DNA of 64,000 nt, from assembly GCA_905478415.1 (NCBI GenBank), contig CAJQIG010000004.1:203523-267522 (forward strand). The letters are read 5' to 3'. This document shows positions 7,413-25,017 of this stretch, one piece after another (positions within the stretch are counted from its first letter, which is position 1; each line of letters starts with the position of its first letter). The stretch is from an uncultured Patescibacteria group bacterium. Its GTDB lineage: Bacteria; Patescibacteriota; Microgenomatia; UBA1400; PJMF01. The notes below the pieces were generated by a model that did not search any database, was not told where the DNA came from, and saw only the letters and a list, made by a program, of their open reading frames with translations. The position numbers were made by a program, and so were the translations under genes.

Positions 7413-8855
7413 ATGAAAACATCAATAAAAATTGTTACACCAGGAAATTTTGCACCACACAAACACTGGTATCCCAAAGCACTTAATGCTCAAATCCACC
7501 CGCTCGTTTCCTACTTTATGAATATGGATAATGAACGAATTATTAGACGCTTTGCATATCTTAACCCATCTGTAAATGCAGATTATTTGAGTACACTATT
7601 GCAATATAAACCAAAGTACTTCAAGTGGGCTGGAGCTGACCTAATGCACACCACCACCACTAAGGGTAAAAAACAAATTGTGGTGATCGAAACAAACTCT
7701 TGTCCTTCTGGCCAAAAATCATTTCCGCTGCTTGATGAAAATAAGGAACAGGGTGGCTACAAGGAACTCATTGAAAAAACATTCCTACCGGTCTGGAAAA
7801 AAAGTCCCATTAAAACAGGTATCACCTGTGTCTTCTATGACAAAAATGAAATGGAAAATAGTGGCTATGCCGCCACAATTGCTGATAGCATTAAAAAACA
7901 AGTCTACTTAGTCGAGTATCATGAAAATGAATATGGCCAAACTGTTCGCTACAACTCTAAAACTAAAACACTTGAACTGCTGCTAAAAGACACATGGACC
8001 CCCATTAGAGCTATCTTCCGCTACGTGACCCAAAAACCTTGGAATCGCCTGCCATTGTTCTCCAAAACTAAAATCTTCAATCCTGTGATAGCTTGCTTAG
8101 CTGGCGGTCGAAACAAGCTCATGGCTTCAAAAGCTTATGACTTCTTAAATGCAGAAATTGCTGAAGCCGGACTTAAAATTCAAACACCAACAACCATTTG
8201 GGATGTTAATAAGAATGAAATTCCCCTCTGGATAGAGAAATTTGGTTACAAAGGAGTCATAAAAATTCCGTACAGCAACGCTGGCCAAGGTGTGTTCACC
8301 ATTGTAAACAAGCAAGAACTGGACGCCTTTATGGAACTTGAAATTCCGTATCAAAAATTTATTATCCAGAGGTTAATTGGGCATTATGCCTGGAGTTCTC
8401 AACATGAAAATGAACTCTTTTTTCAAGTTGGAACCATGCCAAGCAAACGCGGCAACAGCTATGTGTTTGACCTTAGAATGCTCGTCCACCATACCCCAGA
8501 AGGCATGAGGCCTCTTGGTTTATACAGTCGAAAAGCTGGCCTCCCCCTTACCGCAGATATTTCTGGAAAAGAATCAAAAGATGTCCTCATGACCAATCTT
8601 TCTGTCAAAAACGATGATGGTAGCTGGGATAGCGATGTCAGTAGACTGCTCCTCATGGATCAGCGTGACTTCAACAAAATTGGCATGAGCCTCGATGACT
8701 TAATTGAAGGCTATGTCCAGTCGGTACTCTGTGTCATTGCCATTGATAAAATGGCTCAACGATTAGTAAGTACTAAAAAGACATTTAAGAAAAAATTATT
8801 TACCTCACTTAATGATGATGAAACATTACTCAAGGAACTCTTCTCCCATGAGTAA
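7413..8855 (+). CDS. ATP-grasp-like ligase (YheC/YheD/TTL-like), function unknown
   Basis: 480 aa. Contains IKIPYSNAGQGVFTIV and FDLRMLVHH, typical of ATP-grasp B/C subdomains. The stop overlaps the next gene's start (ATGAGTAA). Confidence 0.4.
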   Translation: MKTSIKIVTPGNFAPHKHWYPKALNAQIHPLVSYFMNMDNERIIRRFAYLNPSVNADYLSTLLQYKPKYFKWAGADLMHTTTTKGKKQIVVIETNSCPSGQKSFPLLDENKEQGGYKELIEKTFLPVWKKSPIKTGITCVFYDKNEMENSGYAATIADSIKKQVYLVEYHENEYGQTVRYNSKTKTLELLLKDTWTPIRAIFRYVTQKPWNRLPLFSKTKIFNPVIACLAGGRNKLMASKAYDFLNAEIAEAGLKIQTPTTIWDVNKNEIPLWIEKFGYKGVIKIPYSNAGQGVFTIVNKQELDAFMELEIPYQKFIIQRLIGHYAWSSQHENELFFQVGTMPSKRGNSYVFDLRMLVHHTPEGMRPLGLYSRKAGLPLTADISGKESKDVLMTNLSVKNDDGSWDSDVSRLLLMDQRDFNKIGMSLDDLIEGYVQSVLCVIAIDKMAQRLVSTKKTFKKKLFTSLNDDETLLKELFSHE

Positions 8856-9738
8856 AACACCTTTTGGATGGCTTCTGGTTACAAAACATTCAAACGAGTA
8901 TAAAAAAAGACGTTTGATCGAAGAAGCTGAAAGAGCAGCTATCGATTTGCGAGTTGTCACTCCAGACCAATTTTTACTCCAAAGCACTTCTTCAAAAAAT
9001 GTGATCAGAGACATTCAGACAGGCACTCCAATCGAGGAACTGCCTACATTCGTAATTTCTTTAGTAGTAGTTGAGGAAAAAGATCCACAGGCATTTGTTC
9101 TGATGGAGCACCTTGCTGCTCTAGACTTATTACTCATCAATAACCCAACATCTGTCAGACATGCAAATGACAAAATGGCTACCTATCGAACTGCTGCTAA
9201 GATGCAAATCAGAATACCCACCACTTTTCTGCACATTCCAGGAACACTACTGACTCTGCAGGAGCACATTCAGTATCCCTGTGTCATAAAACCAAATAAA
9301 GGCCTGAAGGGAACAGGAGTAGAACTAGTACAAAATGTAGAAGATCTGACAACACACCTCAATACAGTCTCAGAACCAACACTAGTCCAAGAAGCCATTG
9401 CCGAAAGTAGCGGAAAAGATGTTCGTGTTCTTATGTTGGGAAATAAACCATTAGGATCCATGCTCCGAGAAAGTAACACTTCATTTACTTCAAATATTGC
9501 TACCGGGGGCTCTGCGAAAATGACAACTATTAATCCAAGCTACGTAGACATTGCCACTGCGCTCTTAAAAAAAATGACTATTACCTTCGGCTCAGTGGAC
9601 TTTCTCTATGGGAAAGATGAAATGGTGCTCTGTGAAGTAAATGCTAACCCGGGATTGAAAATGTTTGAAGCCGTCAGCAATCGTAATATCGCAAAAGAAA
9701 TTCTTCTCTACTGCACTAAACAAAGTCATACAAGCTGA
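8848..9738 (+). CDS. RimK-like ATP-grasp ligase (alpha-L-glutamate ligase family)
   Basis: Contains VIKPNKGLKGTGVELV, DVRVLMLGNKPLGSMLRE and MVLCEVNANPG, which are RimK/GshB-type ATP-grasp motifs. The start at 8848 is coupled to the upstream ATP-grasp gene. Confidence 0.6.
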   Translation: MSKTPFGWLLVTKHSNEYKKRRLIEEAERAAIDLRVVTPDQFLLQSTSSKNVIRDIQTGTPIEELPTFVISLVVVEEKDPQAFVLMEHLAALDLLLINNPTSVRHANDKMATYRTAAKMQIRIPTTFLHIPGTLLTLQEHIQYPCVIKPNKGLKGTGVELVQNVEDLTTHLNTVSEPTLVQEAIAESSGKDVRVLMLGNKPLGSMLRESNTSFTSNIATGGSAKMTTINPSYVDIATALLKKMTITFGSVDFLYGKDEMVLCEVNANPGLKMFEAVSNRNIAKEILLYCTKQSHTS

Positions 9739-9783: not shown

Positions 9784-10202
9784 GGGGATGTACTGCTTTG
9801 ACGGAGTATGTTCATTAATATCTGCAGATCTTCTTTGACTAAGAAAGAAGTAAAACAGAGTCAAAACATAATTGCAAATAAAACTGCAAAAGGCATTTTA
9901 GATACTACCACTAATGCATTCGCATCAGTGTTCGGTACTAACTCTGCTCCTGCTTTCATCGCTGCATAAGCTTTGTAACAGGCGTGTATTCTTTTCATCT
10001 CATTGGCGTGAGGGAGTATGCGTAAACCCAGTCAATGTGACAAATAGTTTTCGTTCGTTGAAACTATCATAAGCAAATAGACGAAGATTGTGTCATGAAG
10101 GCTTGTTTGTTTTCCCTCTGACGCAACAACAAGGACAAACTACATCTGTAGATGATATTGGTGCTACTATTTCGGACGCGAGATCATTCCTCGCCATCTC
10201 CA
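9784..10202 (+). ncRNA. ssrA: tmRNA (ssrA), one-piece
   Basis: The 5' end reads GGGGATGTACTGCTTTGACGGAG (compare E. coli GGGGCUGAUUCUGGAUUCGACGGG). The 3' end reads ATTTCGGACGCGAGATCATTCCTCGCCATCTCCACA (compare E. coli AUUUCGGACGCGGGUUCAACUCCCGCCAGCUCCACCA). The 7-bp acceptor GGGGATG/CATCTCC has a G3:U70 alanine identity pair. The T-arm is GCGAG-ATCATTC-CTCGC. An internal open frame ends ...SAPAFIAA-TAA at 9967-9969, typical of a tag peptide. An intrinsic terminator follows. Confidence 0.85.
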
Positions 10203-10212
10203 CAACAATCAA

Positions 10213-10407: not shown

Positions 10408-11436
10408 ATGTCTAATAGAAAACACTTACTACTAGCTGCTGTTTTGTTTGTGGCTTTTTTTGCCCTCTTTCCTAAAAATGCTCAAGCTGCACAACTTACC
10501 GAGGCCTATGTCAGACTTGATCGACTCAAAGCCTCAACCACAACTGGTGGAACGGTATGCGCAAAATTAACAACAACAGGTTCTACAGATACAACTATAA
10601 AAGTAAGCTTTCCTTCAGGTTTTACTGTCGACTCTACAGCTAGCAACTGGACTGTAACCACAACCAATTTGCCGGCAGGTGCCTCAGCCATGCCTGGTAT
10701 TAGCACCGCCTCTTTAGTTGCAAGTCAAGATGTTACTTTTCCAATAACTGACATCTCTTCTGGTGCAACGCTCTACTGTTTCAATTTTACCGGAACCAGT
10801 ACCTTAACAAATCCCACAGCCGGAAATGATAAAACTGGCACCATCACCGTACAGGCAAGTGGACCAACGGAGGTTGATTCTGGTAACTTTGCTCTTTCAA
10901 TTATTTCTGACGACCAGGTAGTTATTACGGCTACCGTTCCAGCTACCTTTAGTGTGGCCCTTGGCACAAACACCCAAGCACTTGGAACGCTGAGTACTGG
11001 TTCTGTTTCGTCTGGATCTGGAGTCTCTGTTACCATTGGCACGAATGCAGGTAATGGTTGGATTGGTTGGGTACTCAGTGCAAATCAAGCACTTGATTCA
11101 GCTACTACAGGTGACACTATCGCTACAACAGGAACTGTTGATGATACTCCAAGTAGTCTCTCTGCTGGTACAGAAGGCTATGTACTTGATGCCGACTTAA
11201 CTACTGATTCTGCAACTGGGGGATCTGGAACTGTAACCATTGATGCCGAGTACTTAGGTGCCGACACTTCTTCGGGAGGTGCGTTGAGTGCAACTTTCAC
11301 TGAGTTTGCTACTGCAAATGGACCAACTGATGGAGATGTCATTACCTTGATCCCTAGAGCTGCCATTTCGGGTCTGACACAAGCTGCCACAGATTATACC
11401 GATACCCTTACCATTGTTGCTGCTGGACACTTCTAG
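10408..11436 (+). CDS. Secreted surface protein, paralog family A (WxL-like?)
   Basis: Sec signal peptide (..FPKNAQA|AQ). The conserved N-domain (YVRLDRLKAS, NWTVTTTNLPAGASAMPG, VTFP, TNPTAG) is shared with 21288..24146. A mid IGWVL motif, the C-terminal motif DYTDTLTIVAAGHF, and a Thr/Gly/Ser-rich composition are shared with 14171..15223. Confidence 0.55.
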   Translation: MSNRKHLLLAAVLFVAFFALFPKNAQAAQLTEAYVRLDRLKASTTTGGTVCAKLTTTGSTDTTIKVSFPSGFTVDSTASNWTVTTTNLPAGASAMPGISTASLVASQDVTFPITDISSGATLYCFNFTGTSTLTNPTAGNDKTGTITVQASGPTEVDSGNFALSIISDDQVVITATVPATFSVALGTNTQALGTLSTGSVSSGSGVSVTIGTNAGNGWIGWVLSANQALDSATTGDTIATTGTVDDTPSSLSAGTEGYVLDADLTTDSATGGSGTVTIDAEYLGADTSSGGALSATFTEFATANGPTDGDVITLIPRAAISGLTQAATDYTDTLTIVAAGHF

Positions 11437-11494: not shown

Positions 11495-12604
11495 ATGATC
11501 AAACGTATGTCTTTCAACTCCAAAAAACTTCTTTTATCTCTTCCTGTCCTGATTATCCTGATCTTTTCAGCCACAACTGTCCGAGCTCAGGAAACTTCAA
11601 CAGCTAGTGCTGAGACAGAAGCAGCTGCAACACCTCCACCAGCCGCCATTCAACCAATAGACTTAACCGTTTCGCCCATCACTCTCAACTTAGCTACTGA
11701 TCCTGGTAAGGAGGTAACTTCGGCCATTAAAGTGTTTAACAATAGCACTGAAAAAGAGTATTTAGAAATCAAGTTAGCTAAGTTCACCGCTGACAGGACT
11801 GGTTCGCGTCCTCAGATTAGAGACTTCGAAGCAAGTGACTCCTATCAAGACTGGCTGCAATTTGAACGGACAACATTCGAAGTGAACCCCGGCGAGTGGG
11901 AAACTATTAATCTTACATTTGCTCCACCTGCAGAGTCGGCTCTGGCTTACTACTATGCAATTATCGTCAAAAGACAAGTTGATACCACTGACGATGCCGC
12001 CACAACCATTGTCACTGGAGCACCTGCCATTTTAGTGCTCGCAAATATTTATTCGCCTAATGCTATTCAAGAGTTACAATTAGTAGATTTTTCTATGAAA
12101 AAAAAATTCTATGAATACTTGCCAGCCGAGTTCGAAATAGATATAAAAAATACAGGTAATATTCATCTCAGCCCACTTGGAAATATATTTATTGACAAAG
12201 GAGATGATAAAGATATTGCCTTACTCTCTATCAATAAAGAAAACGGATTAGTACTTCCTGACTCACAACGAACCTACACAGCAAAATGGACGGAAGGATT
12301 TCCTGTGTACGAACCAGTCATCGAAAATGGTATTGAAAAAAAAGATGAGAAGGGAGAGACAGTCTACAAACTTAACTGGGACCTCTCTAAAATTAATCAG
12401 TTCCGTTTTGGAAAATACACTGCTAACCTTTTATTAGTCTATGATAACGGTGTGCGAGACATTCCCATAGAATCAGTACTGACATTTTGGGTTTTTCCGT
12501 GGAAGATACTATTGGTAGCTCTGCTCCTCGTAGTCTTACTTTCACTGGGAGTGATGTATCCGCTACTTGCGCTCTATGGTAAAGTTAAGAAAAAAGAAAC
12601 ATAA
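11495..12604 (+). CDS. Surface-anchored protein with signal peptide and C-terminal TM anchor (DUF916/DUF3324-like)
   Basis: Signal peptide (..TTVRA|QE). The Ig-like region IDLTVSPITLNLATDPGKEVTSAIKVFNNSTEKEYLEI resembles the conserved core of DUF916 cell-surface proteins. The C-terminal TM is WKILLVALLLVVLLSLGV followed by KVKKKET. Confidence 0.45.
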   Translation: MIKRMSFNSKKLLLSLPVLIILIFSATTVRAQETSTASAETEAAATPPPAAIQPIDLTVSPITLNLATDPGKEVTSAIKVFNNSTEKEYLEIKLAKFTADRTGSRPQIRDFEASDSYQDWLQFERTTFEVNPGEWETINLTFAPPAESALAYYYAIIVKRQVDTTDDAATTIVTGAPAILVLANIYSPNAIQELQLVDFSMKKKFYEYLPAEFEIDIKNTGNIHLSPLGNIFIDKGDDKDIALLSINKENGLVLPDSQRTYTAKWTEGFPVYEPVIENGIEKKDEKGETVYKLNWDLSKINQFRFGKYTANLLLVYDNGVRDIPIESVLTFWVFPWKILLVALLLVVLLSLGVMYPLLALYGKVKKKET

Positions 12605-12610
12605 TTCTAC

Positions 12611-13546
12611 ATGGTATATCGCTTCTGGAATTTTTTTTTAGTAAGTAGCTTACTGTTATTTTTAACAGCAACTGCTCCAATGGCTTTTGCACAAGAAAAA
12701 AACAACTTTTCGCTGACTATTCAACCAGCATACCAAGAAGTTGAGATACCTGAAGATAAGAATAGTGTCGAAACAACGATAACTCTGAAAAATCCTTCTG
12801 ATACAGCCCAACAAATGGAACTATTCGCCTTTGATTTTACCCAAAGTGACCATTTTGGCTCAATTGCTTTGCTCGATGGATTCACCGGCCAGTATGCTCA
12901 TACTCTAGCTTCCTTTTTATCCTTTGAAAAAGACAGTCTCATCATTGCTGCTCAATCTGAAGAAGAAGTCGTCATTAAAATTGAAAATAGAGCTACGCTT
13001 TCTCCTGGAGGTCACTATGCTGCCATAGTAGTTCGAGCAATTGAAGAACAAGGTGCCTCGCAGCAAAAAATACTTCCAGCTGTAACATCGCTTTTGCTGG
13101 TCAGAAAAAAAAGTGGTGAACGTATTAATCTATCCCTAAAAGAACTTAGTTGGCAACCAAAAGCACTGGTAACTCACTTTCCAGAAAAAATTGACTTGAC
13201 TTTCGAGAATGGGGGAAATGTCCATGTTGTTCCAAGGGGCACCGCAGCTATTACAGACATTTTTGGCCGCGTCGTGTTTCAGGGAACAGTTAACGAATCA
13301 AGTTTGTACCTCTTACCAGGAACAATGAGAACAATTTCTACAAACTTACAACAGTCAAGAACTTTTTTTCCACTGATGTTTTATTCTTTAGAAATACATG
13401 GGAGATCAAATGTTGGTGAAGCTACTTTTTCTTCCGAAACTAGTTTTCTGTACGTTGACTGGAAATTTGTTGTGCTTTTGTTGATCATTGTGGGAGCCAT
13501 TATTTTCAGAACGGTACAAAAGAAGAAAAGAAATGAAAAAAAATAA
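12611..13546 (+). CDS. Second signal-peptide plus C-terminal-anchor surface protein (DUF916/DUF3324-like paralog)
   Basis: Signal peptide (..MAFA|QE). Contains SLTIQPAYQEVEIPEDKNSVETTITLKNPSDTAQQMEL, the same pattern as the previous gene. The C-terminal TM is FVVLLLIIVGAIIF followed by a KKKRNEKK tail. Confidence 0.45.
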   Translation: MVYRFWNFFLVSSLLLFLTATAPMAFAQEKNNFSLTIQPAYQEVEIPEDKNSVETTITLKNPSDTAQQMELFAFDFTQSDHFGSIALLDGFTGQYAHTLASFLSFEKDSLIIAAQSEEEVVIKIENRATLSPGGHYAAIVVRAIEEQGASQQKILPAVTSLLLVRKKSGERINLSLKELSWQPKALVTHFPEKIDLTFENGGNVHVVPRGTAAITDIFGRVVFQGTVNESSLYLLPGTMRTISTNLQQSRTFFPLMFYSLEIHGRSNVGEATFSSETSFLYVDWKFVVLLLIIVGAIIFRTVQKKKRNEKK

Positions 13547-14170: not shown

Positions 14171-15223
14171 ATGAAAAAACCAGTTATACTCATGAGCCTG
14201 ATGTTACTAGCCTTTCCGGCCAGCACTAACTATGCTCTAAAAAGTTTTGATTTTAATGCCGGTGGTGATAATTCCTTGAGTTCTTCAAGCTATGCCATGG
14301 AAGGTGCAGTGGGTGAACTAGGGAGCGATCCACTTTCTTCACTCAACTACACTACGCTTCCCGGACTCCTGTATACACAAATGGTGAACACACCATCAGC
14401 CCCAACTGTTACCAATGCTGGAGACTTCACAAATAAACTGTTAGTCACTATTGCTACTGAAGGCAACCCCTCTGACACTACCTATGCCATTGCTGTTTCT
14501 GATGATAACTTTGTCACCACAGAGTATCTGCAATCAGACAATACGGTGGGTGCTACACTCGGAGCTGAAGACTGGCAAACCTATGCCGATTGGGGCGGAG
14601 GTAGTGGAGAGTTTGCAGTTGGGTTAGTTCCTAACACAACCTATTACTTCAAAGTTAAAGCTGCCCAAGGAGAATTTACTGAAGGCCCCTGGGGTCCGGT
14701 AGCATCAGTAGCAACTTCAGCACTGAGTATTTCATTTGATATTGATGTATCTGCAACGGACCAAGAGACAGCAGCTCCATACGCTGTTGCACTAGGAGAT
14801 CTGCAATCGGGAACCATTGTCACCAGTACCGAAAAAATATGGGTTGACCTAGCTACAAATGCACCAGGAGGAGGCTTTGTGTATGTCTTTGGTTCCAATG
14901 GAGGTTTGTTGAGTCAAAAAACAAGTCATACTATTTCAGCCGTGTCAGGAAATTTAAGTAGCTTAGATGAAGGTTTTGGAATCCAATACAACAGCCTTTC
15001 AGAAAGTAGTGGCGGACCAATGGTGGTTTCATCTCCATATGACGGAGCGGGAGAAGTTGTCGGTACTATCACCACAAACCCACAAGAGATTTTCAATACC
15101 TCTGCCACTGCAATTGCTGGCGGAAGAGCTTCATTTGTGACCAAAGCTAAAATTGATGACTTAACTCCAGCTGCAGCTGACTACACTGACACCATTACTA
15201 TTATTTCGACTGCTAGTTTCTAA
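14171..15223 (+). CDS. Secreted surface protein, paralog family A (WxL-like?)
   Basis: Signal peptide MKKPVILMSLMLLAFPAS. The C-terminus AAADYTDTITIISTASF and the mid KIWVDLATN motif are shared with 10408..11436. Thr/Gly-rich. Confidence 0.5.
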   Translation: MKKPVILMSLMLLAFPASTNYALKSFDFNAGGDNSLSSSSYAMEGAVGELGSDPLSSLNYTTLPGLLYTQMVNTPSAPTVTNAGDFTNKLLVTIATEGNPSDTTYAIAVSDDNFVTTEYLQSDNTVGATLGAEDWQTYADWGGGSGEFAVGLVPNTTYYFKVKAAQGEFTEGPWGPVASVATSALSISFDIDVSATDQETAAPYAVALGDLQSGTIVTSTEKIWVDLATNAPGGGFVYVFGSNGGLLSQKTSHTISAVSGNLSSLDEGFGIQYNSLSESSGGPMVVSSPYDGAGEVVGTITTNPQEIFNTSATAIAGGRASFVTKAKIDDLTPAAADYTDTITIISTASF

Positions 15224-15927: not shown

Positions 15928-17926
15928 GAACCAGGCAAAGGCGGCCACTGGTATTTACAAAACTATAAACTTCCAAGGAAAAGTCGTAAATAGTGATGGC
16001 ACCAACGTTGCGGATGGAGATTATGATTTTGTCTTTTCTCTCTACACCGTTGACACCGCCGGCTCAGCAGTCTGGACCGAATCACGTACTACCGTTAACC
16101 AAGTCACCGTCACAGACGGTGTTTTTCGTGTAGCTTTGGGTGAGGTAACTACCTTACCCGGATCAATTGACTTTAATACTGATAATATTTACTTGGGTAT
16201 CAACTTCAATAGTGATGGAGAAATGACTCCTCGAGTTCGCTTCACTGCTGTCCCCTATGCTTTTAATGCTCTCAAGGTTGCAGGACTTACTGTCACTGAT
16301 ACCACCGGAACATTAACTGTTCCAGATGCCAGCACCATTGCCTTTTCAGGTGCCTTCGACACCACCTTTACGACTACCAACACAACTACTGTCACCCTTC
16401 CAACTACAGGAACGCTGGCAACTTTGGCAGGAACAGAAACGTTTACCAATAAAACTATTGGTTCAACCGGACTCACCTTTTCTGGCGCAACGACTGACAT
16501 TACCACAGGAACAAATGAACATTTTGTTATCTCTCCGAATGGCACTGGGAATGTTGGAATTGGATCAACAACACCAACCCAATTCTTTGAGGTCCAAAAA
16601 GATACAAATGGATATGCAGCAATGTTAATTGATAACGAAACAAATGACACACTCGCTGCATCAGGATACTTCTTTGAAAACTCTACTAGAGGTGGTGGTT
16701 TTGGACTTTATTCTGATAACTTTACAGGGGGTGGAGGCTTAAGTCACTTGGCGGGTAGAATGGCTACGGCTGGATACAATGGGTTAGAACCACTTGGTAT
16801 AGATCTTATTGCAAACCATGCTAGTGGAGATATCCGATTGTTTACAGGCGGTATTGCAACTTCGAATGAGCGTATGCGAATTGACTCTGCTGGAAATGTG
16901 GGAATTGGTACCACCACAACGAGCAGCTACAAACTTGATGTAACTGGCACTATCCGAGCCACTGGCAGCGTCCTCAGCTCTGATATTGATGCAGATACAG
17001 CCGGGGCTCTTACGATCGGTAACACCACGGCCACTGCAGTCTCTATCTGTAACTCTGCCGCCTGCGACACAATTTCCATTGGCAATAATGCTGACGCAGA
17101 TACCATTACTATTGGTGACTCTCCAGATGGACTAACAATCAGTAGTTCTGGCTTCAACTTAACTTCTGGAGGAGCAATTTCTGGTATCTCTACTTTTGCA
17201 AGTAGCGGTGACTGGACTTGGTCAGCTACCACTCCAACCTTAACACTCAACTCGAGCGAGACCCTCACAATAACAGATGGCACTGATAGTTTTGTGGTTA
17301 ACACAGCCAGTTCATTATTCTCACTTTCTGACGGCAGCAACAGCTTTACCTTTGATGCTGACACTGGGCCTAACTACACTGGAACTGCACGACCAACAAA
17401 AAAGATTGTCATTTCGCCAGAATATGCTGGTGGGACTTTAACAACCTTCTATGGAGCTGGTACCGATGCTTCAATAACTGGAGTCATGACTGCCGATGCA
17501 GAAACTACCGCCACTGACAGCCTCCGCACCTACTATGAATGGAGTAGTTCTCAGGGCTCACTAAACTACTACACCGTCGTAGTCAGGATAACACTACCTG
17601 AAGATTTCAGTGCATGGGCCCCTTCTAACGCCCTACAAGTTGACTTCACCACTGAATCAACAAACTCAGCAAATAACTTACTTAGCGCCTATGTATATCT
17701 AAGTAGTGACTCAACAACCGCAGTAGCCTCAGACGTAAGTAATGCAGCTGCTGGAGCCGAAACTTGGGAACAAATCACTGTTGATGACAGTGTTCTAGAT
17801 GACGCTGCTGCTCCAGAGTGGGATGCTGCTGGAGAAACGGCGCTCATTTACCTCAGAATGGGATCAACTGGCAACAATTTTGCGAGAGTTGGCGACATCA
17901 CCTTAAATTATGTTGCCCGGTTCTAG
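15839..17926 (+). CDS. Large secreted Thr/Gly-rich fibrous protein (adhesin/fibre-like)
   Basis: 695 aa. The N-terminal signal-like region is KVIRIFLLLVMALGLLLLKNQAKA|ATG. About 25% Thr plus Gly, with repeated TTxT/GT motifs. The 5' end overlaps the upstream gene; an alternative start is 15902. Confidence 0.5.
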   Translation: MYFLQPKTPALKVIRIFLLLVMALGLLLLKNQAKAATGIYKTINFQGKVVNSDGTNVADGDYDFVFSLYTVDTAGSAVWTESRTTVNQVTVTDGVFRVALGEVTTLPGSIDFNTDNIYLGINFNSDGEMTPRVRFTAVPYAFNALKVAGLTVTDTTGTLTVPDASTIAFSGAFDTTFTTTNTTTVTLPTTGTLATLAGTETFTNKTIGSTGLTFSGATTDITTGTNEHFVISPNGTGNVGIGSTTPTQFFEVQKDTNGYAAMLIDNETNDTLAASGYFFENSTRGGGFGLYSDNFTGGGGLSHLAGRMATAGYNGLEPLGIDLIANHASGDIRLFTGGIATSNERMRIDSAGNVGIGTTTTSSYKLDVTGTIRATGSVLSSDIDADTAGALTIGNTTATAVSICNSAACDTISIGNNADADTITIGDSPDGLTISSSGFNLTSGGAISGISTFASSGDWTWSATTPTLTLNSSETLTITDGTDSFVVNTASSLFSLSDGSNSFTFDADTGPNYTGTARPTKKIVISPEYAGGTLTTFYGAGTDASITGVMTADAETTATDSLRTYYEWSSSQGSLNYYTVVVRITLPEDFSAWAPSNALQVDFTTESTNSANNLLSAYVYLSSDSTTAVASDVSNAAAGAETWEQITVDDSVLDDAAAPEWDAAGETALIYLRMGSTGNNFARVGDITLNYVARF

Positions 17927-17939
17927 CACAAAAGATACT

Positions 17940-20900
17940 ATGCTCAAGAAAAAAATATTATTCCAAATTTCAAGTGTATTCTTACTCTTGGCTATTCTCT
18001 TAGGATATGTGCTCTTCAAAGGCACTCAGCCAGTCTATGCAAACATCTTTCATTTTTGGTGGAACGAAAACATTACTGAAATTGTCATCCCCAAAGATAA
18101 TTTTGATACCGATGAAAAAATCATTATGCATGTTGATGGGGCAGATAAAAAAAACATCACTGTTGAAGTAAAAGACCCTGCTGGTCATAGCATTGAGATA
18201 GACACCCGACTTTCTAACTCTTCAGATGGCACTGTCGTCACACTACTTCCACCAGAAACAATAACTCCAGGAAAATATACTGTAGAAGTGAAAAATAAAA
18301 AAGGAACGGTATTGAATACTAGTTTCAGTTGGGGAGTACTTGCTATAAATGTCAACCAAGCTCACTACAGACCTAATGATGAAGCTCAACTTTCGTTTGC
18401 TGTCTTGGATGAAAAAGGTGACATGGTCTGTGACGCCGACCTTGAGCTACAAATCATTCAAAAGGCCACCGGAATTATAGACACACTAACAACAAAAGAT
18501 GGCGATATTACCACTAACCCAGAATGTGCTATATATGGCGTCACATATAACCCAGACTATGAAGCCACCTACACTGTTGGAACTCCGGGACAATACACAA
18601 TGGAGCTAACAGCCACAACCACAAATGGTACATACACCGTTACAGACTATTTTGAAGTTGCCGAAACCCTCGACTTTATAGTCGAACGACAAACAGCAAC
18701 TAGAATTTACCCTGTGGTCAGCTACCCCGTTGAAATACGTATTATTCCTAATAACGATTTTAAAGGACAAATTATTGAGACTGTACCCAATACCTTTACT
18801 ATCGAAAAAACAGAAACAGCTGCCCTACAACCAAATCTCATTACGGACAGCTCTTCTACTGAGAAACAACTACTTTGGAATGTAGACTTACAAAAAGGGG
18901 TTGAGTATACTCTGGCTTATACCTACGACGCACCTGACATCAGTCCAGAACTCTTCAGCATTGGCCCCCTGCAAATCCTTGATACTACTAGTGACAAAAT
19001 CTTTTCCGAAAAAAGAAAGTGGAAAATTGCTGTCGATGCCGTCGCCTTTGATGCAGTCACAACTGACAGCGCTAGTGTTGGAAGAAGTAGTGCGTCATTC
19101 TCACATACTACAACTGGATCAGATCGGCTGCTACTCGTTTTTGTCTCTCTCTTTCATGGTAACGCTACTCCAGATGTAACTTCAATTACCTATAATGGCG
19201 TCAGCATGACTCTGGAAACTGAACTAGAAGTTGTTTCAAGCCGCCATATTCGAACATTTGTGTACAGCCTTGTAAACCCAGCCTCAGGATCAAATACTGT
19301 TGCTGTCACCTATGCTCAGTCGACACAGGTTGCAGATGCGGTTATGGCAATCAGCTACACTGGGGTAGATCAAACAACACCAATTCCAACAACTGCAACA
19401 AACTCTTCAACATCAGCTGCTGACCCCACAATTGACATAACCACTACAACTGCCAACTCCCTCATTGTTGCAGGTGCTACAGTTCGTGGTGGTGACACCG
19501 CCCCATTTACTCCAGGTACCGGTAGTACTGAACGCTGGGACTTTGTCACCGATACTAATGCTAATGTTGACCTTGGAACCTGGGGAGGTGAAGAATCAGC
19601 AGCCACAACTGGTACGTATACTGTTGATGCCACGGCCACCAATTCAGACTTTTACTCCATGGTTGCAGTTGAGGTAGCAGAAGTGGCAGCAGCTGGAGGT
19701 ATTACGGTGTCTGGTAATGCCTATCAATCTGGAACCACGGCTTTAACCGACTGTGATGGGACCACTCAAAACATAGCACTCCGAGCTGGAAGTACTACCT
19801 ATACCACCACCTGTAATGCTTCAACTGGTGCATGGTCCATTGGTAGCGTAACGCAACCAAGCTCAGGTGACGGACTCGTTGTTTGGATTGATGGCGAAAC
19901 TACTGACGGAGCACTTGTCACCCGCTACGATGGCACAGGCGACTCAACTGGAAATATTTTTTATGCAAATGCGCTCACTTTTACAAGTGATGATAGTACC
20001 GCTGTTAACAACGCTGATGCAGACACCTATGACAATGCTGATGATGCTGATATCCCCTACACTGTCTCCACCAATGCTTTGACCCTTAATAGTGGCCATG
20101 AACTACTTGTCTACACAGGTAAAACCTACGACCCAAATGGAACTGTTACCACTAATGCAACCGGTGGTAATCTTCATGTTGATGATAGCTCCACCGCATA
20201 TCTCGACACTGCCACTTCAACTATTGGTGCTGATGTTATAGTTGATAACGGAGCAACACTTAATATTGATGCCACAACAAACATTTCTGGTGGAGATATC
20301 ACCTTAACTGGAACAGGCCTTGTTTCCACTACTACTGGGACTCCAACTACAACTATTTCTGGAGCAGGCACTATAGGCGGCGGCACTGGCTCACTCACCT
20401 TCTATAACCTTGCGCTTGCAGGGACCGGTACCACAACACTAAACGCACCACTCACTACTGCTAATAACCTCACGATTGGTGACGGCACCAATGCTCATAC
20501 GCTAGATGTAGAAACAAACGACAAGGCTGTCGACACCAATGGAGCATTCACTATTGCTGCCAATGGAACCTATACTGCCTCATCCACAACAGATGTAACT
20601 GTACAAGGAAACTTTACCAATGGGGGCATTCTTACTGAAGGAACAAGCACCATTGTCCTAGACGGATCTACCACAGCTAATCTTGATTCTGGTTGCAGCA
20701 CCGTATCCACATGTACAACCAACAACCTGTATAACCTTACCTTGAATAAGTCGACGTCAGGAACTACGGTAACGCTTCTCAACACAGGGCTGAGAGTTAG
20801 CAATACGCTTGAAATTACTACTGGAACTCTCAACCAATCAACCCTCGATGTGCAACTGGAGGGCAGCTCAGCGCTGGGAGTCACGAGCAACGGTACCTGG

Positions 20901-21254
20901 TCAAATACATCTACCGGCAACCTTACCTTAGGTGGATCTGTTTCAATTAATGGCACTATGACCCTTCAGGGTAATGGGGCCAGTTGTGGTGATACCGACA
21001 GTATTGTCATCAGCTCAACGTCTGGTGGAACACAACAGACCTGGAATGGAACTGGCACAACCACTATTAATGATGTGACCATCTCAGACCAGTCAGGAAC
21101 GATGTTGATCAATGCCCTCAGTTCAACTAATGCCGGTAATGTAAACACAAACTGGAGTATCTTCGGTGGCTGTAGTACTACTCCCGACCCCAACGAGCTC
21201 CTTCGCCATGGCGAATGGTTTTCTGGTGAGGTGAATCAAAAATTCAGTTTTTGA
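17940..21254 (+). CDS. Giant secreted beta-helix-like repeat protein (adhesin-like)
   Basis: About 1100 aa. Signal and TM region MLKKKILFQISSVFLLLAILLGYVLF. Long runs of T/N/G-rich short repeats (TLNxxTxxxGG, NGTxT) are reminiscent of parallel beta-helix adhesins. Confidence 0.5.
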   Translation: MLKKKILFQISSVFLLLAILLGYVLFKGTQPVYANIFHFWWNENITEIVIPKDNFDTDEKIIMHVDGADKKNITVEVKDPAGHSIEIDTRLSNSSDGTVVTLLPPETITPGKYTVEVKNKKGTVLNTSFSWGVLAINVNQAHYRPNDEAQLSFAVLDEKGDMVCDADLELQIIQKATGIIDTLTTKDGDITTNPECAIYGVTYNPDYEATYTVGTPGQYTMELTATTTNGTYTVTDYFEVAETLDFIVERQTATRIYPVVSYPVEIRIIPNNDFKGQIIETVPNTFTIEKTETAALQPNLITDSSSTEKQLLWNVDLQKGVEYTLAYTYDAPDISPELFSIGPLQILDTTSDKIFSEKRKWKIAVDAVAFDAVTTDSASVGRSSASFSHTTTGSDRLLLVFVSLFHGNATPDVTSITYNGVSMTLETELEVVSSRHIRTFVYSLVNPASGSNTVAVTYAQSTQVADAVMAISYTGVDQTTPIPTTATNSSTSAADPTIDITTTTANSLIVAGATVRGGDTAPFTPGTGSTERWDFVTDTNANVDLGTWGGEESAATTGTYTVDATATNSDFYSMVAVEVAEVAAAGGITVSGNAYQSGTTALTDCDGTTQNIALRAGSTTYTTTCNASTGAWSIGSVTQPSSGDGLVVWIDGETTDGALVTRYDGTGDSTGNIFYANALTFTSDDSTAVNNADADTYDNADDADIPYTVSTNALTLNSGHELLVYTGKTYDPNGTVTTNATGGNLHVDDSSTAYLDTATSTIGADVIVDNGATLNIDATTNISGGDITLTGTGLVSTTTGTPTTTISGAGTIGGGTGSLTFYNLALAGTGTTTLNAPLTTANNLTIGDGTNAHTLDVETNDKAVDTNGAFTIAANGTYTASSTTDVTVQGNFTNGGILTEGTSTIVLDGSTTANLDSGCSTVSTCTTNNLYNLTLNKSTSGTTVTLLNTGLRVSNTLEITTGTLNQSTLDVQLEGSSALGVTSNGTWSNTSTGNLTLGGSVSINGTMTLQGNGASCGDTDSIVISSTSGGTQQTWNGTGTTTINDVTISDQSGTMLINALSSTNAGNVNTNWSIFGGCSTTPDPNELLRHGEWFSGEVNQKFSF

Positions 21255-21287
21255 GGATAGTCGTTCATTCCTCTTTGGGAAATCATA

Positions 21288-24146
21288 CTATTTTCCCAAT
21301 AATCGGGGTGATGTAATGTATACCAACCAAACAAGTACATTGAAGGTTGAAAGTACTAAAAAAGGTACTACTCTATAAAAACCCAAGTTTGAGATAAAGA
21401 GTACTTGAAACAACAACGAACTAAAAATAGATAGCTCGAAAAACACTCCCAAAACATTCCTCGCCACTTGAAGTATCTTATGTCTTATTTTTTTAGGCAC
21501 CGATTCAGACTTAGTCAAAAAAACTGTTGAAGTTATCAACTTTTCACCAATGTACTCTAGATACTCTTCATTAGTAACATATTCTTTAGCCGTTACTAAA
21601 TAACGAACATCACGTGCTACCAAGTGAGCATGAAACAACCCCTTGCGATTACTTTCTGTTTGGTACAGAGCTTTTTGACCATTTTTTTCAAAGAAAACAA
21701 CTTGAGCTCTACTGACTGGTTGTTTTGTCTGTTCATCAATCACTTTGCCATGAATCAATAGCTTATTTTTTGTAAACGGATGCAGTATAAATAAGACATG
21801 AACTTTAAGATAACGAACTAACTTCTTTGGAGAAATGTGTGTGCGAGCAGACAACGCAAAAATACTTAAAAACCCAAACAGCAGTAATGAAAAAATTTCA
21901 ATAAGTGCATAAAAAGTATTTGATGTTGCATATAAATCAAGCTGAGTAGTCAGTGAACGGTACATATCTTCAAGCGTAGTAGCATGATAAGAGATAAGTG
22001 AAACCAATGTCTGTGGAGCAGGGTGGAGATACACTCTAGGAAATTGTTGAGAAGCATCTGGTCCCAAGACAAACTCAACTGTTTGGGTCTCATATCCAGA
22101 AGCGTCAACTACAATTCGGTACTTTTCATGTGGGAGCACTACTCTTACTCTTCCTTCGTGATCAGTAAACAAAGGATTTGAAGAAAGAAATGTCTGCGGA
22201 TTCATCAGTTCGTACCTATTATTTTTTTCGTTAAAGCGATAGATATGTATGCGAGCCCGTTCGACTGGCAGCTGATCATTTGCATTCACAATAGTCAACG
22301 GGGCTGAGACATATAAATGAGAAACTGGAAATTCGAGGATGTTCCCCAAACGATCAAATACTTGTAAATATGAATCATAGTAACCAGGAACTTGAGGAAA
22401 TTCAACTTGCCCAGAGTATACCCCTGCGGTTGTTTCAAATAACTTCGTTTTACTTACTACCGGTGAAGTATAGGTATCATTTCCTTCGGCACCTAAAATT
22501 TGACTATTCACTACCACATAGTACACATGCTCTATCAACTGATCCTCCTGAAAAGAAAAAAAGACTTCATAGGGAAACGATGTTGGTAGCGATGCTACCT
22601 GATGTACCTTCTGACCAACGGTAGAAAGCACAGACAAATTTTTACTCAGCATAGTAACAGTTGATATATCTAGCTGGGGAATATTTCCAATATCTGCTGT
22701 CTTAAAAGTAAAGATATCTGAAGTTGCTTCTGCTCCATCTTCACTGGTGGCACTGACTCGAAAGTAGTAGTGCCTGCTTGGATCTAGATCACTGAGATTG
22801 AATAAGTGAGACTGAGAAAACGTAGTATCCTCTACCATGTTTTGTAAACTTGAAACTGTCTTTCCATACAGTACCCGTACCCGTGTGCTGGTGTCTGTCG
22901 TCACAAAAAGTGTTGCCGCTGTATTCGAAAGTTTTTTAACTTCAATACTTGAAAATACTGGCGACACTACTGGCACAACAACTGTTTGATTTGCCTCTTC
23001 TTCAGTAGTTAAACATGCTGTATTTTTGGGGTTCTGCTCGTTGCGACACCGACCCGTGACGTTATAACAGTAACCCGTTCTACATTCTGAGTTCTCTGAA
23101 CACGACGTATTGCATGACTTTTTTGTGGCTCCAACAGTCGGCGATGGTGTTGGACTTGGAGTGGGATCAGGCGCGTGCATAAATGACTGAGAGACCGTTG
23201 TATCACTGGTTACGGCTGGACTTAGCACCCGCCCGGAAACTGAAAAAGTTATTGGCAGTTCGTGTGCATAACTCTGTGATGTCTGTAAACTGAAGGTAAC
23301 TGTTTGACCCGTTGTGGTAGCTGGGAAGTTGGGAATCGTCCATGTAATAGTTCTATTAACTGTATCGATAATAGGTGCTGTCGCCCCATACGCGTCACTA
23401 GCACTACCAGTGACATAGCTCAAGATATCTATACTAGGTGACCCTTGACCACTTATCGTCCCTTGACTCCACTCTGCTTGCAAAGTCAGTGGGGTTGACT
23501 GAAGTAAGTCGGACCCATACGTTATTTGATACTCTAGCACCTCATTTTGATCAAAAGTTGAACTAGCAGTCAGGGATGCTATGTCGGCAGTAAAGTAGTA
23601 TGAAAGGGCTGGCACTTCTCCAGATATAACTACTTGATCATTAGCAATGACTGGCACCATACTCTCTGAACTACTTGAAACACTTGCAGCCACTAAGGTA
23701 GCACTATTCCAAAGGTAGTTTTCGCCCGCTCCTGCCGATGGGTTGGTAAAAATTCCGCCCGTAATATAAAAACCATATTGAGTACCTGCCAAAATATCAG
23801 CACTTGGAAAGGTAACTACTTGACCAGAAACATTCGTTGCCGTTCCAACTCCCGGCCAAGCAGAAACTCCCGCAGGAAGGTTTGTCACTGAAGTAGTAAA
23901 ATTACTCGAGTTTGCACTCACAGACCAAGCCGGACCAACCGTTATCTGCACACCATCTTCTGATACGGTTTCACTGGTAGTAGCTACTACCAGTATTCGT
24001 CCCGGATTTTGCCCAGCCGCCGCTCGATCTAGACGAATATACGAAGAGTTTAACTCCAAAGCATAGGCTGGTGTTAAGACAAATGACAAAACTAAGACAC
24101 TAAACACACAACTTGCAATAATTTTTTTTCTAAGAATATTGAACAT
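21288..24146 (-). CDS. Chimeric polytopic surface protein: family-A N-domain, Cys-rich module, FN3/Ig-like, CarboxypepD_reg-like domains, and C-terminal TM helices
   Basis: Signal peptide MFNILRKKIIASCVFSVLVLSFVLTPAYA. The N-domain YIRLDR..NFTTSVTNLPAGVSAWPG..VTFP..TNPSAG is homologous to 10408..11436. The Cys-rich stretch is CNTSCSENSECRTGYCYNVTGRCRNEQNPKNTAC. Two carboxypeptidase-regulatory-like beta-sandwich segments (IHIYRFNEKNN..; IHGKVIDEQTKQPVSRAQVVFF..). Three predicted TM helices near the C-terminus. Confidence 0.5.
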   Translation of the reverse strand: MFNILRKKIIASCVFSVLVLSFVLTPAYALELNSSYIRLDRAAAGQNPGRILVVATTSETVSEDGVQITVGPAWSVSANSSNFTTSVTNLPAGVSAWPGVGTATNVSGQVVTFPSADILAGTQYGFYITGGIFTNPSAGAGENYLWNSATLVAASVSSSSESMVPVIANDQVVISGEVPALSYYFTADIASLTASSTFDQNEVLEYQITYGSDLLQSTPLTLQAEWSQGTISGQGSPSIDILSYVTGSASDAYGATAPIIDTVNRTITWTIPNFPATTTGQTVTFSLQTSQSYAHELPITFSVSGRVLSPAVTSDTTVSQSFMHAPDPTPSPTPSPTVGATKKSCNTSCSENSECRTGYCYNVTGRCRNEQNPKNTACLTTEEEANQTVVVPVVSPVFSSIEVKKLSNTAATLFVTTDTSTRVRVLYGKTVSSLQNMVEDTTFSQSHLFNLSDLDPSRHYYFRVSATSEDGAEATSDIFTFKTADIGNIPQLDISTVTMLSKNLSVLSTVGQKVHQVASLPTSFPYEVFFSFQEDQLIEHVYYVVVNSQILGAEGNDTYTSPVVSKTKLFETTAGVYSGQVEFPQVPGYYDSYLQVFDRLGNILEFPVSHLYVSAPLTIVNANDQLPVERARIHIYRFNEKNNRYELMNPQTFLSSNPLFTDHEGRVRVVLPHEKYRIVVDASGYETQTVEFVLGPDASQQFPRVYLHPAPQTLVSLISYHATTLEDMYRSLTTQLDLYATSNTFYALIEIFSLLLFGFLSIFALSARTHISPKKLVRYLKVHVLFILHPFTKNKLLIHGKVIDEQTKQPVSRAQVVFFEKNGQKALYQTESNRKGLFHAHLVARDVRYLVTAKEYVTNEEYLEYIGEKLITSTVFLTKSESVPKKIRHKILQVARNVLGVFFELSIFSSLLFQVLFISNLGFYRVVPFLVLSTFNVLVWLVYITSPRLLGK

Positions 24147-24297
24147 AGTAGTCTGCTCCCATCATGACACATCCCTACCCTTGAGGTAAAGATGATAGAT
24201 CTAAAAAACCTTGTTCACCTTGGCAACTAGCGAGTTTGATAGCTTTTGAACTAATACTTGAAGTTTCAACAAAGAGTCAGTACTATAACCTCAGCCT

Positions 24298-25017
24298 ATG
24301 AAACTCCTTTCTTTCCAAAAACCATCCAAATTCAAAGTGGCAACTGTCTTTCTTGTTTTTGCTCTAGTAGCTAGCTCAACATATTTCTATGTTCAGTATA
24401 AAAACGAGCAAGCTAGTAATCCGGCCCGAGAAGTGCAAGAAACTACCGCTGCCGTTTCTAAGTTTATGGAACTCCCACAAAATGAAGAACCTAGTTTAGC
24501 CACGGTAACAGAAAAAGAAAAACTACAAGATCAAGAATTCTTCAAACAAGCAGAAAATGGTGATAAAGTTCTCATCTATATTGATGCTGGTAAAGCTATT
24601 CTCTATAGACCTTCAACTGGAAAAATTATTGATGTCACTTCTATTAATACTAACCCGACAGCAACCACACTTACTCCCGAAAATCCAAAAGAAGTAGTGG
24701 AGAAACCAATTGAAACACCCGTCATAGAGAAAAAACTAACTATTACTTTACTAAATGGATCTGAAACAACTGGTATTACCAAGGCTATTGAAGACAAAAT
24801 TGTATCTTCACTCGAAAACTTCACGGTAGTAAGTCGACAATCAGCCGAGAAAACCACCTATCAAGAAACTCTAATTGTTGATATTACAGGTGGAAATAAA
24901 GAAGCAACTGAATCCCTTCAGGCCACCATAGGTGGTGAAATTGGGGCCCTCCCCAAAGGGGAAATCTTACCTGATTCTGACATACTGGTGATTGTTGGTA
25001 CTAATCCAGAACAATAA
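24298..25017 (+). CDS. LytR_C domain membrane protein (LytR/CpsA/Psr C-terminal domain only)
   Basis: N-terminal TM. The C-terminal LTITLLNGSETTGITKAIEDKIVSSLENFTVV...TLIVDITGG matches the LytR_C pattern. Divergently arranged to the 952-aa gene. Confidence 0.5.
   Translation: MKLLSFQKPSKFKVATVFLVFALVASSTYFYVQYKNEQASNPAREVQETTAAVSKFMELPQNEEPSLATVTEKEKLQDQEFFKQAENGDKVLIYIDAGKAILYRPSTGKIIDVTSINTNPTATTLTPENPKEVVEKPIETPVIEKKLTITLLNGSETTGITKAIEDKIVSSLENFTVVSRQSAEKTTYQETLIVDITGGNKEATESLQATIGGEIGALPKGEILPDSDILVIVGTNPEQ

Follow-up and report, generated by a model that had tools for sequence, protein, structure and literature searches.

In a 64,000-nucleotide stretch of the genome of an uncultured Patescibacteria group bacterium (GenBank assembly GCA_905478415.1, contig CAJQIG010000004.1, positions 203,523 to 267,522; hereafter the window), an open reading frame (ORF) at 21288..24146 on the minus strand encodes, from an ATG start, a protein of 952 amino acids (aa) and 105 kDa. 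We propose, with a probability of roughly 0.6, that this protein is the basal, membrane-embedded subunit of a Pam-type pilus that Microgenomatia-group Patescibacteria assemble by chaperone-assisted donor-strand exchange, and that it serves as both terminator and tether. Pam pili have been described for the Saccharimonadia bacterium Ca. Mycosynbacter amalyticus (Troman et al., bioRxiv 10.64898/2026.03.03.709456). Their pilin consists of a nine-strand N-terminal sandwich, a linker strand donated to the open immunoglobulin (Ig)-like C-terminal domain (CTD) of a neighbouring subunit, and then its own CTD (10.64898/2026.03.03.709456). Other ORFs are named below by their first position in the window, and the coordinates of all features are collected in Table 1.

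Pilin-type head and donor-type strand

The evidence starts at the N-terminus. Residues 6-180 are 35% identical to residues 4-179 of the pilin-like subunit encoded by ORF 10408-11436 of the same locus (BLASTP, E 6e-20), and profile-profile comparison of the first domain (D1) plus linker with the N-terminal domain (NTD) plus linker of the pilin family gives a probability of 100% and an E value of 9e-53 (hhalign). The "family-A N-domain" recognised by the first-pass annotation of this DNA is thus borne out as a domain common to both proteins. The predicted cleavage site of the signal peptide, placed between AYA and LE by the AXA rule, lies in register with that of the pilin, between AQA and AQ. 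From this site the two families are colinear through the whole NTD up to a strand block, DQ[IV]x[IV][TS][AG]x[VI], which is the last block they have in common and reads 169-NDQVVISGEV-178 in the 952-aa protein and 168-DDQVVITATV-177 in ORF 10408. Its aliphatic-x-aliphatic-[TS]-[AG]-x-[VI] pattern is present in all or nearly all of 104 homologs and in 16 of 16 pilins, and the small A/G position is filled in every sequence of both families. The motif is too uniform for coevolution within the same locus to discriminate. AlphaFold2 (AF2) leaves the linker, residues 164-184, as unpaired coil, with a predicted local distance difference test (pLDDT) score of 76 for residues 171-180.

Past the strand block the pilins enter their CTD and the 952-aa protein enters a second domain, D2. 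This is the most highly conserved of all its domains (conservation 0.65), with Y210, Y244, S248 and W269 invariant; it has no Pfam match at E<=1, and its comparison with the pilin CTD yields an hhalign probability of 0.5%. Judged by these profiles, D2 would not be a pilin CTD, and a protein that lacks an acceptor CTD would hence not be a polymerising pilin. A subunit that possesses a donor strand, lacks an acceptor and is fixed in the membrane could only be added last, capping and tethering the filament.

We envisage the following sequence of events. The protein would be exported by the Sec pathway and its signal peptide removed; the first transmembrane (TM) helix would stop transfer, and, to judge from hydropathy and charge, the TM2-TM3 hairpin together with a cytoplasmic beta-sandwich would retain the protein in the membrane. 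Its distal end, as the alignment shows, is the pilin NTD followed by the strand of alternating hydrophobic residues that connects the two domains of the locus's pilins. By analogy with PamR of Pam pili and PapH of P pili, compared below, this strand would enter the open Ig-like CTD of the final pilin to be added at the membrane, displacing the membrane-anchored chaperone encoded by ORF 11495 or 12611. With no acceptor CTD recognisable at the profile level, no further subunit could be added and growth would stop. A stalk of about six domains (D2, the Pro/Thr-rich linker, a fibronectin type III (FN3)-like domain and more sandwiches), presumably long enough to cross the wall, would then hold the filament on the cell. 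The first-pass annotation saw in the protein a possible membrane platform that nucleates a surface assembly. It was right about a component that is embedded in the membrane and belongs to a locus for surface assembly; nucleation does not suit a pilin NTD and donor strand without an acceptor CTD, which under the Pam polarity could be added only last.

The family is broad and its architecture stable. Among 5.8 billion proteins, 109 relatives span the whole length of the 952-aa protein; most measure 880-980 aa, they are 26-60% identical to it, and they carry in the databases either no name or that of a "carboxypeptidase regulatory-like domain-containing protein". No NCBIfam model matches the family. 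Where the source of a full-length relative is named, it is Levybacteria or Patescibacteria group. A scan of species-representative genomes located 53 loci, under titles that name Levybacteria, Roizmanbacteria and Microgenomates, and more than 200 relatives of full architecture are all assigned to Patescibacteria of these same three names. Many related metagenome-assembled genome records (e.g., L010-L015 and L059) are titled "uncultured Gammaproteobacteria/Pseudomonadales bacterium" despite the Patescibacteria-specific locus; these titles are probably placeholder taxonomy labels from bulk submission and were disregarded, the properly named relatives all being Patescibacteria.

With the C-terminal 253 residues as query, an exhaustive HMMER search returned 258 cluster representatives, nearly all of which carry the module at their own C-terminus. 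The proteins fall into two size classes: of 247 classified sequences, 131 belong to the long form, with a median of 919 aa, and 77 to the short form, with a median of 774 aa, the remaining 39 being fragments or proteins of other architecture. The short forms dispense with D1 and proceed from the signal peptide directly to the donor-type strand, D2, the stalk and the membrane module; in one example the signal peptide ends in ...QVFA and is followed at once by the conserved strand, DTITVTGTVAARPSDFQ, and then by D2. What is invariant in the family is therefore the part that the short forms keep: an exposed donor-type strand, D2, a stalk and the module of three TM helices. When the strand and D2 together served as query, profile searching yielded only two fragments.

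That an N-terminal domain of this protein also occurs in a separate gene of the same locus might raise the suspicion of a gene fusion or assembly artefact, in which mis-assembly or a frameshift joined unrelated genes into a chimeric ORF. The probability of this is vanishingly small: the identical 952-aa sequence is recorded on 15 independent public contigs of up to 658 kb, more than 100 homologs are full-length at the identities given above, and the AF2 model is confident along the entire protein. An assembly chimera is ruled out by the conserved full-length homologs and the 15 contigs, and the protein is real and conserved, not a one-off chimera. The term "chimeric" in the first-pass annotation is therefore misleading, given an architecture kept end to end in more than 100 homologs of about 900-950 aa. 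Its coordinates, strand and length for the ORF were exact, and its placement of the neighbours was correct: the gene converges with ORF 17910-21254 (1114 aa) across a stop-to-stop gap of 33 bp, and a gap of 151 bp separates its start from the divergent ORF 24298-25017. A scan of positions 21100-24400 for promoters and terminators found nothing exceeding shuffled expectation.

Stalk and membrane module

The AF2 model, built on a 104-sequence alignment, has a mean pLDDT of 88.1 and shows a linear chain of beta-sandwiches and helices, with about seven beta-sandwich domains, in agreement with the beta-sandwich modules expected from the sequence at the outset. A Foldseek search of the Protein Data Bank (PDB) with the full-length model was uninformative, returning only generic multi-Ig chains (TIE protein, alpha-2-macroglobulins, complement) at TM-scores of ~0.1. 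Within the stalk, residues 410-484 match Pfam Pur_ac_phosph_N (E 4.6e-4) and fn3 (E 1.1e-3), both below threshold, and the family profile matches FN3 domains of the PDB at E 8e-5; residues 486-616 have no significant Pfam match. CarboxypepD_reg (PF13620) scores 44.8 bits over the whole protein, above its cut-off of 32.3, on the stretches 625-700 and 798-860. The two segments of this type had been noted before and stand; they had also been described as flanking all three TM helices, and this part does not hold, as the order is CarboxypepD_reg-like domain 1, TM1, domain 2, TM2, TM3, so that only TM1 is flanked.

The Pro/Thr-rich linker contains an insert of 34 residues, C345-C378, with six Cys in the spacing C-x3-C-x5-C-x4-C-x6-C-x10-C; a seventh, C13, lies in the signal peptide. 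The count of "8 Cys in 34 aa" given earlier thus needs correction to six, and the label "EGF-like" falls as well: no EGF family of Pfam matches at E<=1, and a regular-expression search for C..C..C..CxC..C found no match. An EGF-like domain was set aside as a candidate, given that it requires C-x-C between the fourth and fifth Cys; the spacing here differs and the Pfam EGF models are silent. The full six-Cys insert occurs in 10 of 104 homologs and two more carry two Cys, the rest having a plain Pro/Thr linker, and the motif is confined to orthologs of the 952-aa protein, being found nowhere else in the window or in related loci. From this distribution the six-Cys module looks like a lineage-specific insert into the linker. 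Separately, a Cys pair in the NTD (VCA ... YCFNF; residues ~50-56 and ~120-128) is present in most homologs and pilins and is lost in the window protein and its close relatives (ILVVAT ... YGFYITG). Among the sequences inspected, the six-Cys linker insert occurs only in the subclade without the NTD Cys pair.

Kyte-Doolittle hydropathy and the AF2 model place hydrophobic helices at ~745-768, 897-918 and 924-945, in addition to the N-terminal signal peptide. Around TM1, residues S742, R744, R/K768 and H770 are conserved, as is the exit motif S-A-[RK]-T-H-I. Over the 104 homologs, the segment that follows TM1 is, at a mean hydropathy of 0.12, not a TM segment; its net charge is +2.9, and the C-terminal tail is likewise positive. 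Taken together with hydropathy, the positive charge at both places predicts, by the positive-inside rule, that residues 796-877 are cytoplasmic. The three C-terminal TM helices and the partly cytoplasmic location given in the first-pass annotation agree with this analysis, which yields three TM helices and a second CarboxypepD_reg-like domain predicted to lie inside, rather than a single TM helix with all domains outside.

The TM2-TM3 hairpin is conserved at polar positions: E904 in 97 of 102 sequences, position 914 as E in 61 and Q in 31, and N936 in 86 of 103, alongside conserved G922 and P928. Such conservation of E904, E/Q914, N936 and the cytoplasmic beta-sandwich goes beyond what an anchor needs and would suit an assembly platform, an equivalent of the usher, whose three-TM module recruits the TM-anchored chaperones and catalyses or gates exchange while the pilin-like head serves as primer or docking site. 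It would also accord with the TM anchors of the chaperone-like proteins themselves, with the lack of any other candidate assembly machine in the locus, and with the exceptional conservation of D2, suggestive of a conserved protein-protein interface. We nevertheless judge a platform to be quite unlikely, because the protein has no pore, beta-barrel or usher similarity and because a donor strand without an acceptor cannot prime growth under the published polarity. The preprint, moreover, argues that Pam pili do not need a dedicated trans-envelope machine (10.64898/2026.03.03.709456). A related, somewhat speculative and on balance unlikely idea is that the C-terminal module of the terminator is not a passive anchor: it might couple the pilus base to the cytoplasm and sense load or host contact, or drive or gate donor-strand exchange through ion flow or contacts with the TM helices of the chaperones. 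If true, this coupling module would supply the machine for assembly and signalling that is missing for a donor-strand-exchange pilus in a monoderm.

Neighbouring genes and synteny

The setting of the gene is that of a pilus locus. Besides the pilin, Pam pili comprise a tip protein, PamT, and the PapD/FimC-like chaperones PamC and PamD, each with a C-terminal TM helix (10.64898/2026.03.03.709456). A tail-fibre-like neighbour is conserved, and Pam homologs occur in Microgenomatia (10.64898/2026.03.03.709456). The parts list of the window locus is the same, with pilin-like proteins (ORFs 10408 and 14171), TM-anchored chaperone-like proteins (ORFs 11495 and 12611) and fibre-like genes, and the Microgenomatia distribution of the 952-aa protein's family agrees with that reported for Pam.

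ORF 10408 has 15 full-length orthologs in related loci, and its C-terminal half is homologous to the CTD of ORF 14171 (all-against-all BLAST). On the latter, the NCBIfam model CPR_pilus_PamT (NF058579) matches only within the first ~60-80 residues (12-69), with E 1e-4 and 21.7 bits against a cut-off of 240; 8 of 12 members of the ORF 14171 family tested match it, at best with E 8.7e-13, below the curated cut-off. Unlike PamT, ORF 14171 has an extra N-terminal region. The pilin-type proteins of two related loci (L044 and L029) match the whole 148-position model CPR_Pam_pilin_C (NF058581) at E 1e-9 to 1e-5, with 25-39 bits against a cut-off of 55; for their orthologs of ORF 14171 the E values are 1e-9 and 3e-8. 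The window's own ORFs 10408 and 14171 have no match to this model at E<=0.1, yet they are homologous to the matching L044 and L029 proteins.

Both chaperone-like proteins end in a TM helix followed by lysines; the fold comparison covers the ORF 11495 model alone. Its best Foldseek matches in the PDB are the chaperones CsuC, CfaA, YadV and Caf1M (E 1e-10 to 1e-7; target-normalised TM-score up to 0.62), followed by WxLIP and, more weakly, RbmA. The layout of both ORFs and the fold of ORF 11495 thus correspond to PapD/FimC-like chaperones with a C-terminal TM helix. On the side of WxLIP, the two paralogs resemble the Enterococcus protein (DUF916/DUF3324; PDB 9i25 and 9i1y; Foldseek E ~4e-10), and some homologs carry PF06030. 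WxLIP likewise has two Ig-like domains and a C-terminal TM anchor, which hints at a link between the WxL surface complexes of Gram-positive bacteria and chaperone-type Ig pairs with C-terminal TM anchors; the likeness concerns ORFs 11495 and 12611, which are partners and not relatives of the 952-aa protein. We consider it well supported, though not proven, that the locus is a Pam-type donor-strand-exchange pilus operon.

Synteny was counted over the 53 non-redundant loci, many of them truncated. In 26 of them, a gene of pilin, tip-like or chaperone-like type is no further than 10 kb from the gene of interest, a fibre gene is present in 26, and a LytR_C-like gene is adjacent (<600 bp) in 25; homologs do, then, stand beside similar loci. 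Close relatives (L004 and L005) keep the entire gene order of the window. In distant relatives LytR_C-like and giant fibre-like genes still flank the gene, with pilin and chaperone genes beyond; there a single giant protein (1502-3017 aa) with the same N-terminus takes the place of the two fibre-like proteins, and the N-terminus common to ORF 15839 and these giant convergent proteins matches a fibre-protein model. Where the short form is encoded, its gene comes immediately after those for the tip-like protein, pilin and chaperones and shares their strand. The LytR_C neighbour named in the first-pass annotation falls below threshold in the window itself, and orthologs of ORF 24298 pass the cut-off of 22.2 with 25.8 and 40.6 bits.

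The many loci that have LytR_C-like and fibre genes alone nearby could also be read as those of a stand-alone stalked surface protein or adhesin, which borrowed its pilin head by domain shuffling and acts on its own stalk outside any pilus; a head on a stalk with a Pro/Thr linker, FN3 and CarboxypepD_reg domains is typical of adhesins. This seems very unlikely to us. The headless short forms expose just the conserved strand at their mature N-terminus, an arrangement hard to reconcile with an adhesin. In addition, the family has retained the same strand motif as the pilins, and there is operon-level linkage to pilin and chaperone genes.

A role as terminator and tether has, for its part, several points against it. 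D2 could yet be an acceptor domain, diverged so far that the comparison of profiles does not recognise it. The connection to Pam is built on hidden Markov model matches that all lie below curated cut-offs, on architecture and on one fold match. In half of the loci the nearest 10 kb contain neither a pilin nor a chaperone gene; many of these loci are truncated or split by a giant fibre gene. Finally, a passive tether leaves the conserved intramembrane residues E904, E/Q914 and N936 and the conserved cytoplasmic domain unexplained.

Table 1. Coordinates in the window of the parts of the 952-aa protein and of its neighbours
Feature	Residues	Coordinates (strand)	Basis
Signal peptide	1-29	24060..24146 (-)	Hydropathy peak 9-27; pilin alignment at cleavage site
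D1, pilin-type N-terminal beta-sandwich	30-163	23658..24059 (-)	BLASTP, hhalign, AF2 pLDDT >90
Linker with donor-strand-type motif	164-184	23595..23657 (-)	NDQVVISGEV at 169-178
D2, most conserved beta-sandwich	185 to ~325	23172..23594 (-)	Conservation, AF2
Pro/Thr-rich linker with 6-Cys insert	326-397	22956..23171 (-)	Insert C345-C378, nt 23013-23114
FN3-like domain	~398-485	22692..22955 (-)	Weak Pfam, PDB profile, AF2 strands 398-482
Two more beta-sandwich stalk domains	486-616	22299..22691 (-)	AF2, pLDDT mostly >85
CarboxypepD_reg-like domain 1, predicted extracytoplasmic, membrane-adjacent	617-707	22026..22298 (-)	Pfam PF13620 E 3.3e-5 at 625-700, AF2 strands
Juxtamembrane helix and TM1	714-740; ~743-769	21840..22007 (-)	Kyte-Doolittle peak 2.4 at 747-765, AF2 helices
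Predicted cytoplasmic segment: amphipathic helix (773-788) and CarboxypepD_reg-like domain 2 (796-877)	770-883	21498..21839 (-)	PF13620 E 2.5e-6 at 798-860
TM2-TM3 helical hairpin with intramembrane polar residues	884-952	21291..21497 (-)	AF2 helices 884-921, 923-951
Pilin-like subunit, 342 aa: NTD, donor strand (168-177), CTD ending ...DYTDTLTIVAAGHF		10408..11436 (+)	NTD and strand common to 952-aa protein, CTD to ORF 14171
Chaperone-like protein, 369 aa: signal peptide, two beta-sandwiches, C-terminal TM, Lys-rich tail		11495..12604 (+)	AF2 pLDDT 90.4
Paralog of ORF 11495, 311 aa: signal peptide, C-terminal TM 280-298		12611..13546 (+)	BLASTP E 4e-7 to ORF 11495
Second pilin-type subunit, 350 aa: PamT-like N-terminal region, pilin CTD		14171..15223 (+)	NCBIfam PamT weak match, CTD homology to ORF 10408
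Two large secreted fibre-like proteins, 695 and 1114 aa		15839..21254 (+)	Bdello_MAT_N (NCBIfam) E 5.8e-8 on ORF 15839; synteny
Divergent neighbour, 239 aa: N-terminal TM, LytR_C-like domain		24298..25017 (+)	Pfam LytR_C 17 bits, cut-off 22.2

Some further features of the locus deserve mention. All four secreted proteins end in a C-terminal Phe: ORF 10408 (...AAGHF), ORF 14171 (...STASF), ORF 15839 (...YVARF) and ORF 17910 (...QKFSF). The two pilin-type proteins, ORFs 10408 and 14171, also have in common a terminal motif, DYTDT[LI]TI[VI]..., which is probably the last strand of the acceptor domain. In the 670-bp gap upstream of ORF 10408 lies a transfer-messenger RNA (tmRNA) gene, ssrA, at 9784-10205 on the plus strand (Rfam 95.7 bits; tag peptide predicted by ARAGORN, ANKTAKGILDTTTNAFASVFGTNSAPAFIAA). 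Genomic islands frequently insert at tmRNA genes, and the pilus locus may have such a position too, even though relatives show synteny for it. A gene for a RimK-type ATP-grasp ligase at 8812-9738 (+; Pfam E 7e-29), overlapped by a 480-aa ORF at 7413-8855 (+) with no family match, lies a short way upstream of ssrA. In three distantly related loci, genes for a small HTH_17 (MerR/excisionase-type) protein and a conserved 139-aa protein precede the pilin operon (L006, 18434-19167; L003, 21540-22242; L007, 22095-22811); the window has the tmRNA gene at this place, and no counterpart of the two genes was seen in it. A locus labelled Candidatus Saccharibacteria (L060, 8356-17052, plus strand) has homologs of ORFs 14171, 10408 (49% identity), 11495 and 12611 together with a 545-aa protein. 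This operon gives no Pam match in NCBIfam and has no relative of the 952-aa protein within 10 kb, which fits a different, PamR-type tether in that lineage. Sequence searches of the PDB with ORF 10408 and two L060 proteins did not retrieve the PamA/PamB entries (25PZ, 25QA).

Comparison with known pilus systems

Donor-strand-exchange pili were formerly thought to depend on an outer-membrane usher. The Pam preprint proposes that pili of the candidate phyla radiation are built at the cytoplasmic membrane by TM-anchored chaperones and a small tether (10.64898/2026.03.03.709456). Our results suggest that a large branch of the Patescibacteria, comprising Levybacteria, Roizmanbacteria and relatives, has a tether of another kind and of far greater size. 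In the proposed design, a pilin-derived terminator is joined to a stalk that spans the wall and to a polytopic membrane module that includes a cytoplasmic domain. The family offers a handle on how the host-contact filaments of these not yet culturable organisms are stopped and anchored, and on whether they are coupled to the inside of the cell, and the strand motif together with D2 provides a simple sequence signature for finding such loci.

Among the Pam proteins, the closest counterpart in role is PamR, the proposed small TM-anchored pilus tether with an extra N-terminal strand (10.64898/2026.03.03.709456). As described, PamR resembles the 952-aa protein in the company of pilin and chaperone genes, a signal peptide, an exposed strand, Ig- or FN3-type domains, a C-terminal membrane anchor and the lack of an acceptor; the short forms reproduce the PamR layout exactly, with an N-terminal strand, Ig-type domains and a TM anchor. 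PamR, however, has a mass of 32.8 kDa, two FN3-like (RbmA-like) domains and one TM helix, whereas the 952-aa protein has 105 kDa, about seven sandwiches, three TM helices, a predicted cytoplasmic sandwich and, as a long form, a full pilin NTD ahead of the strand. Size, domain count and number of TM helices, set against the description of PamR, speak against membership in that family, and we regard the likeness as a functional analogy only. With the pilins PamA, PamB and PamE, which consist of an NTD, a linker donor strand and a truncated Ig-like CTD, the correspondence lies in residues 30-184, homologous to the NTD and linker of the locus pilin; the 952-aa protein differs from them in having no CTD.

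Two other types of pilus component were considered and rejected. An usher of the PapC/FimD type should form an outer-membrane beta-barrel pore with a plug, whereas the AF2 model is a chain of sandwiches and helices, and neither Pfam nor NCBIfam gives an usher family; the description "usher-like" is accordingly abandoned. A sortase-anchored Gram-positive pilin is likewise discounted, as the 952-aa protein contains no LPXTG-type motif and the locus no sortase family.

A precedent for a terminator is PapH of P pili, which enters the pilus last, donates its strand and offers no site for extension, so that it stops growth and fixes the point of anchorage. Unlike the 952-aa protein, to which it has no sequence relationship, PapH is soluble, consists of one pilin domain and resides in the outer-membrane usher. 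In the locus described here there is neither usher nor outer membrane, and the proposed terminator would carry its own polytopic membrane anchor.

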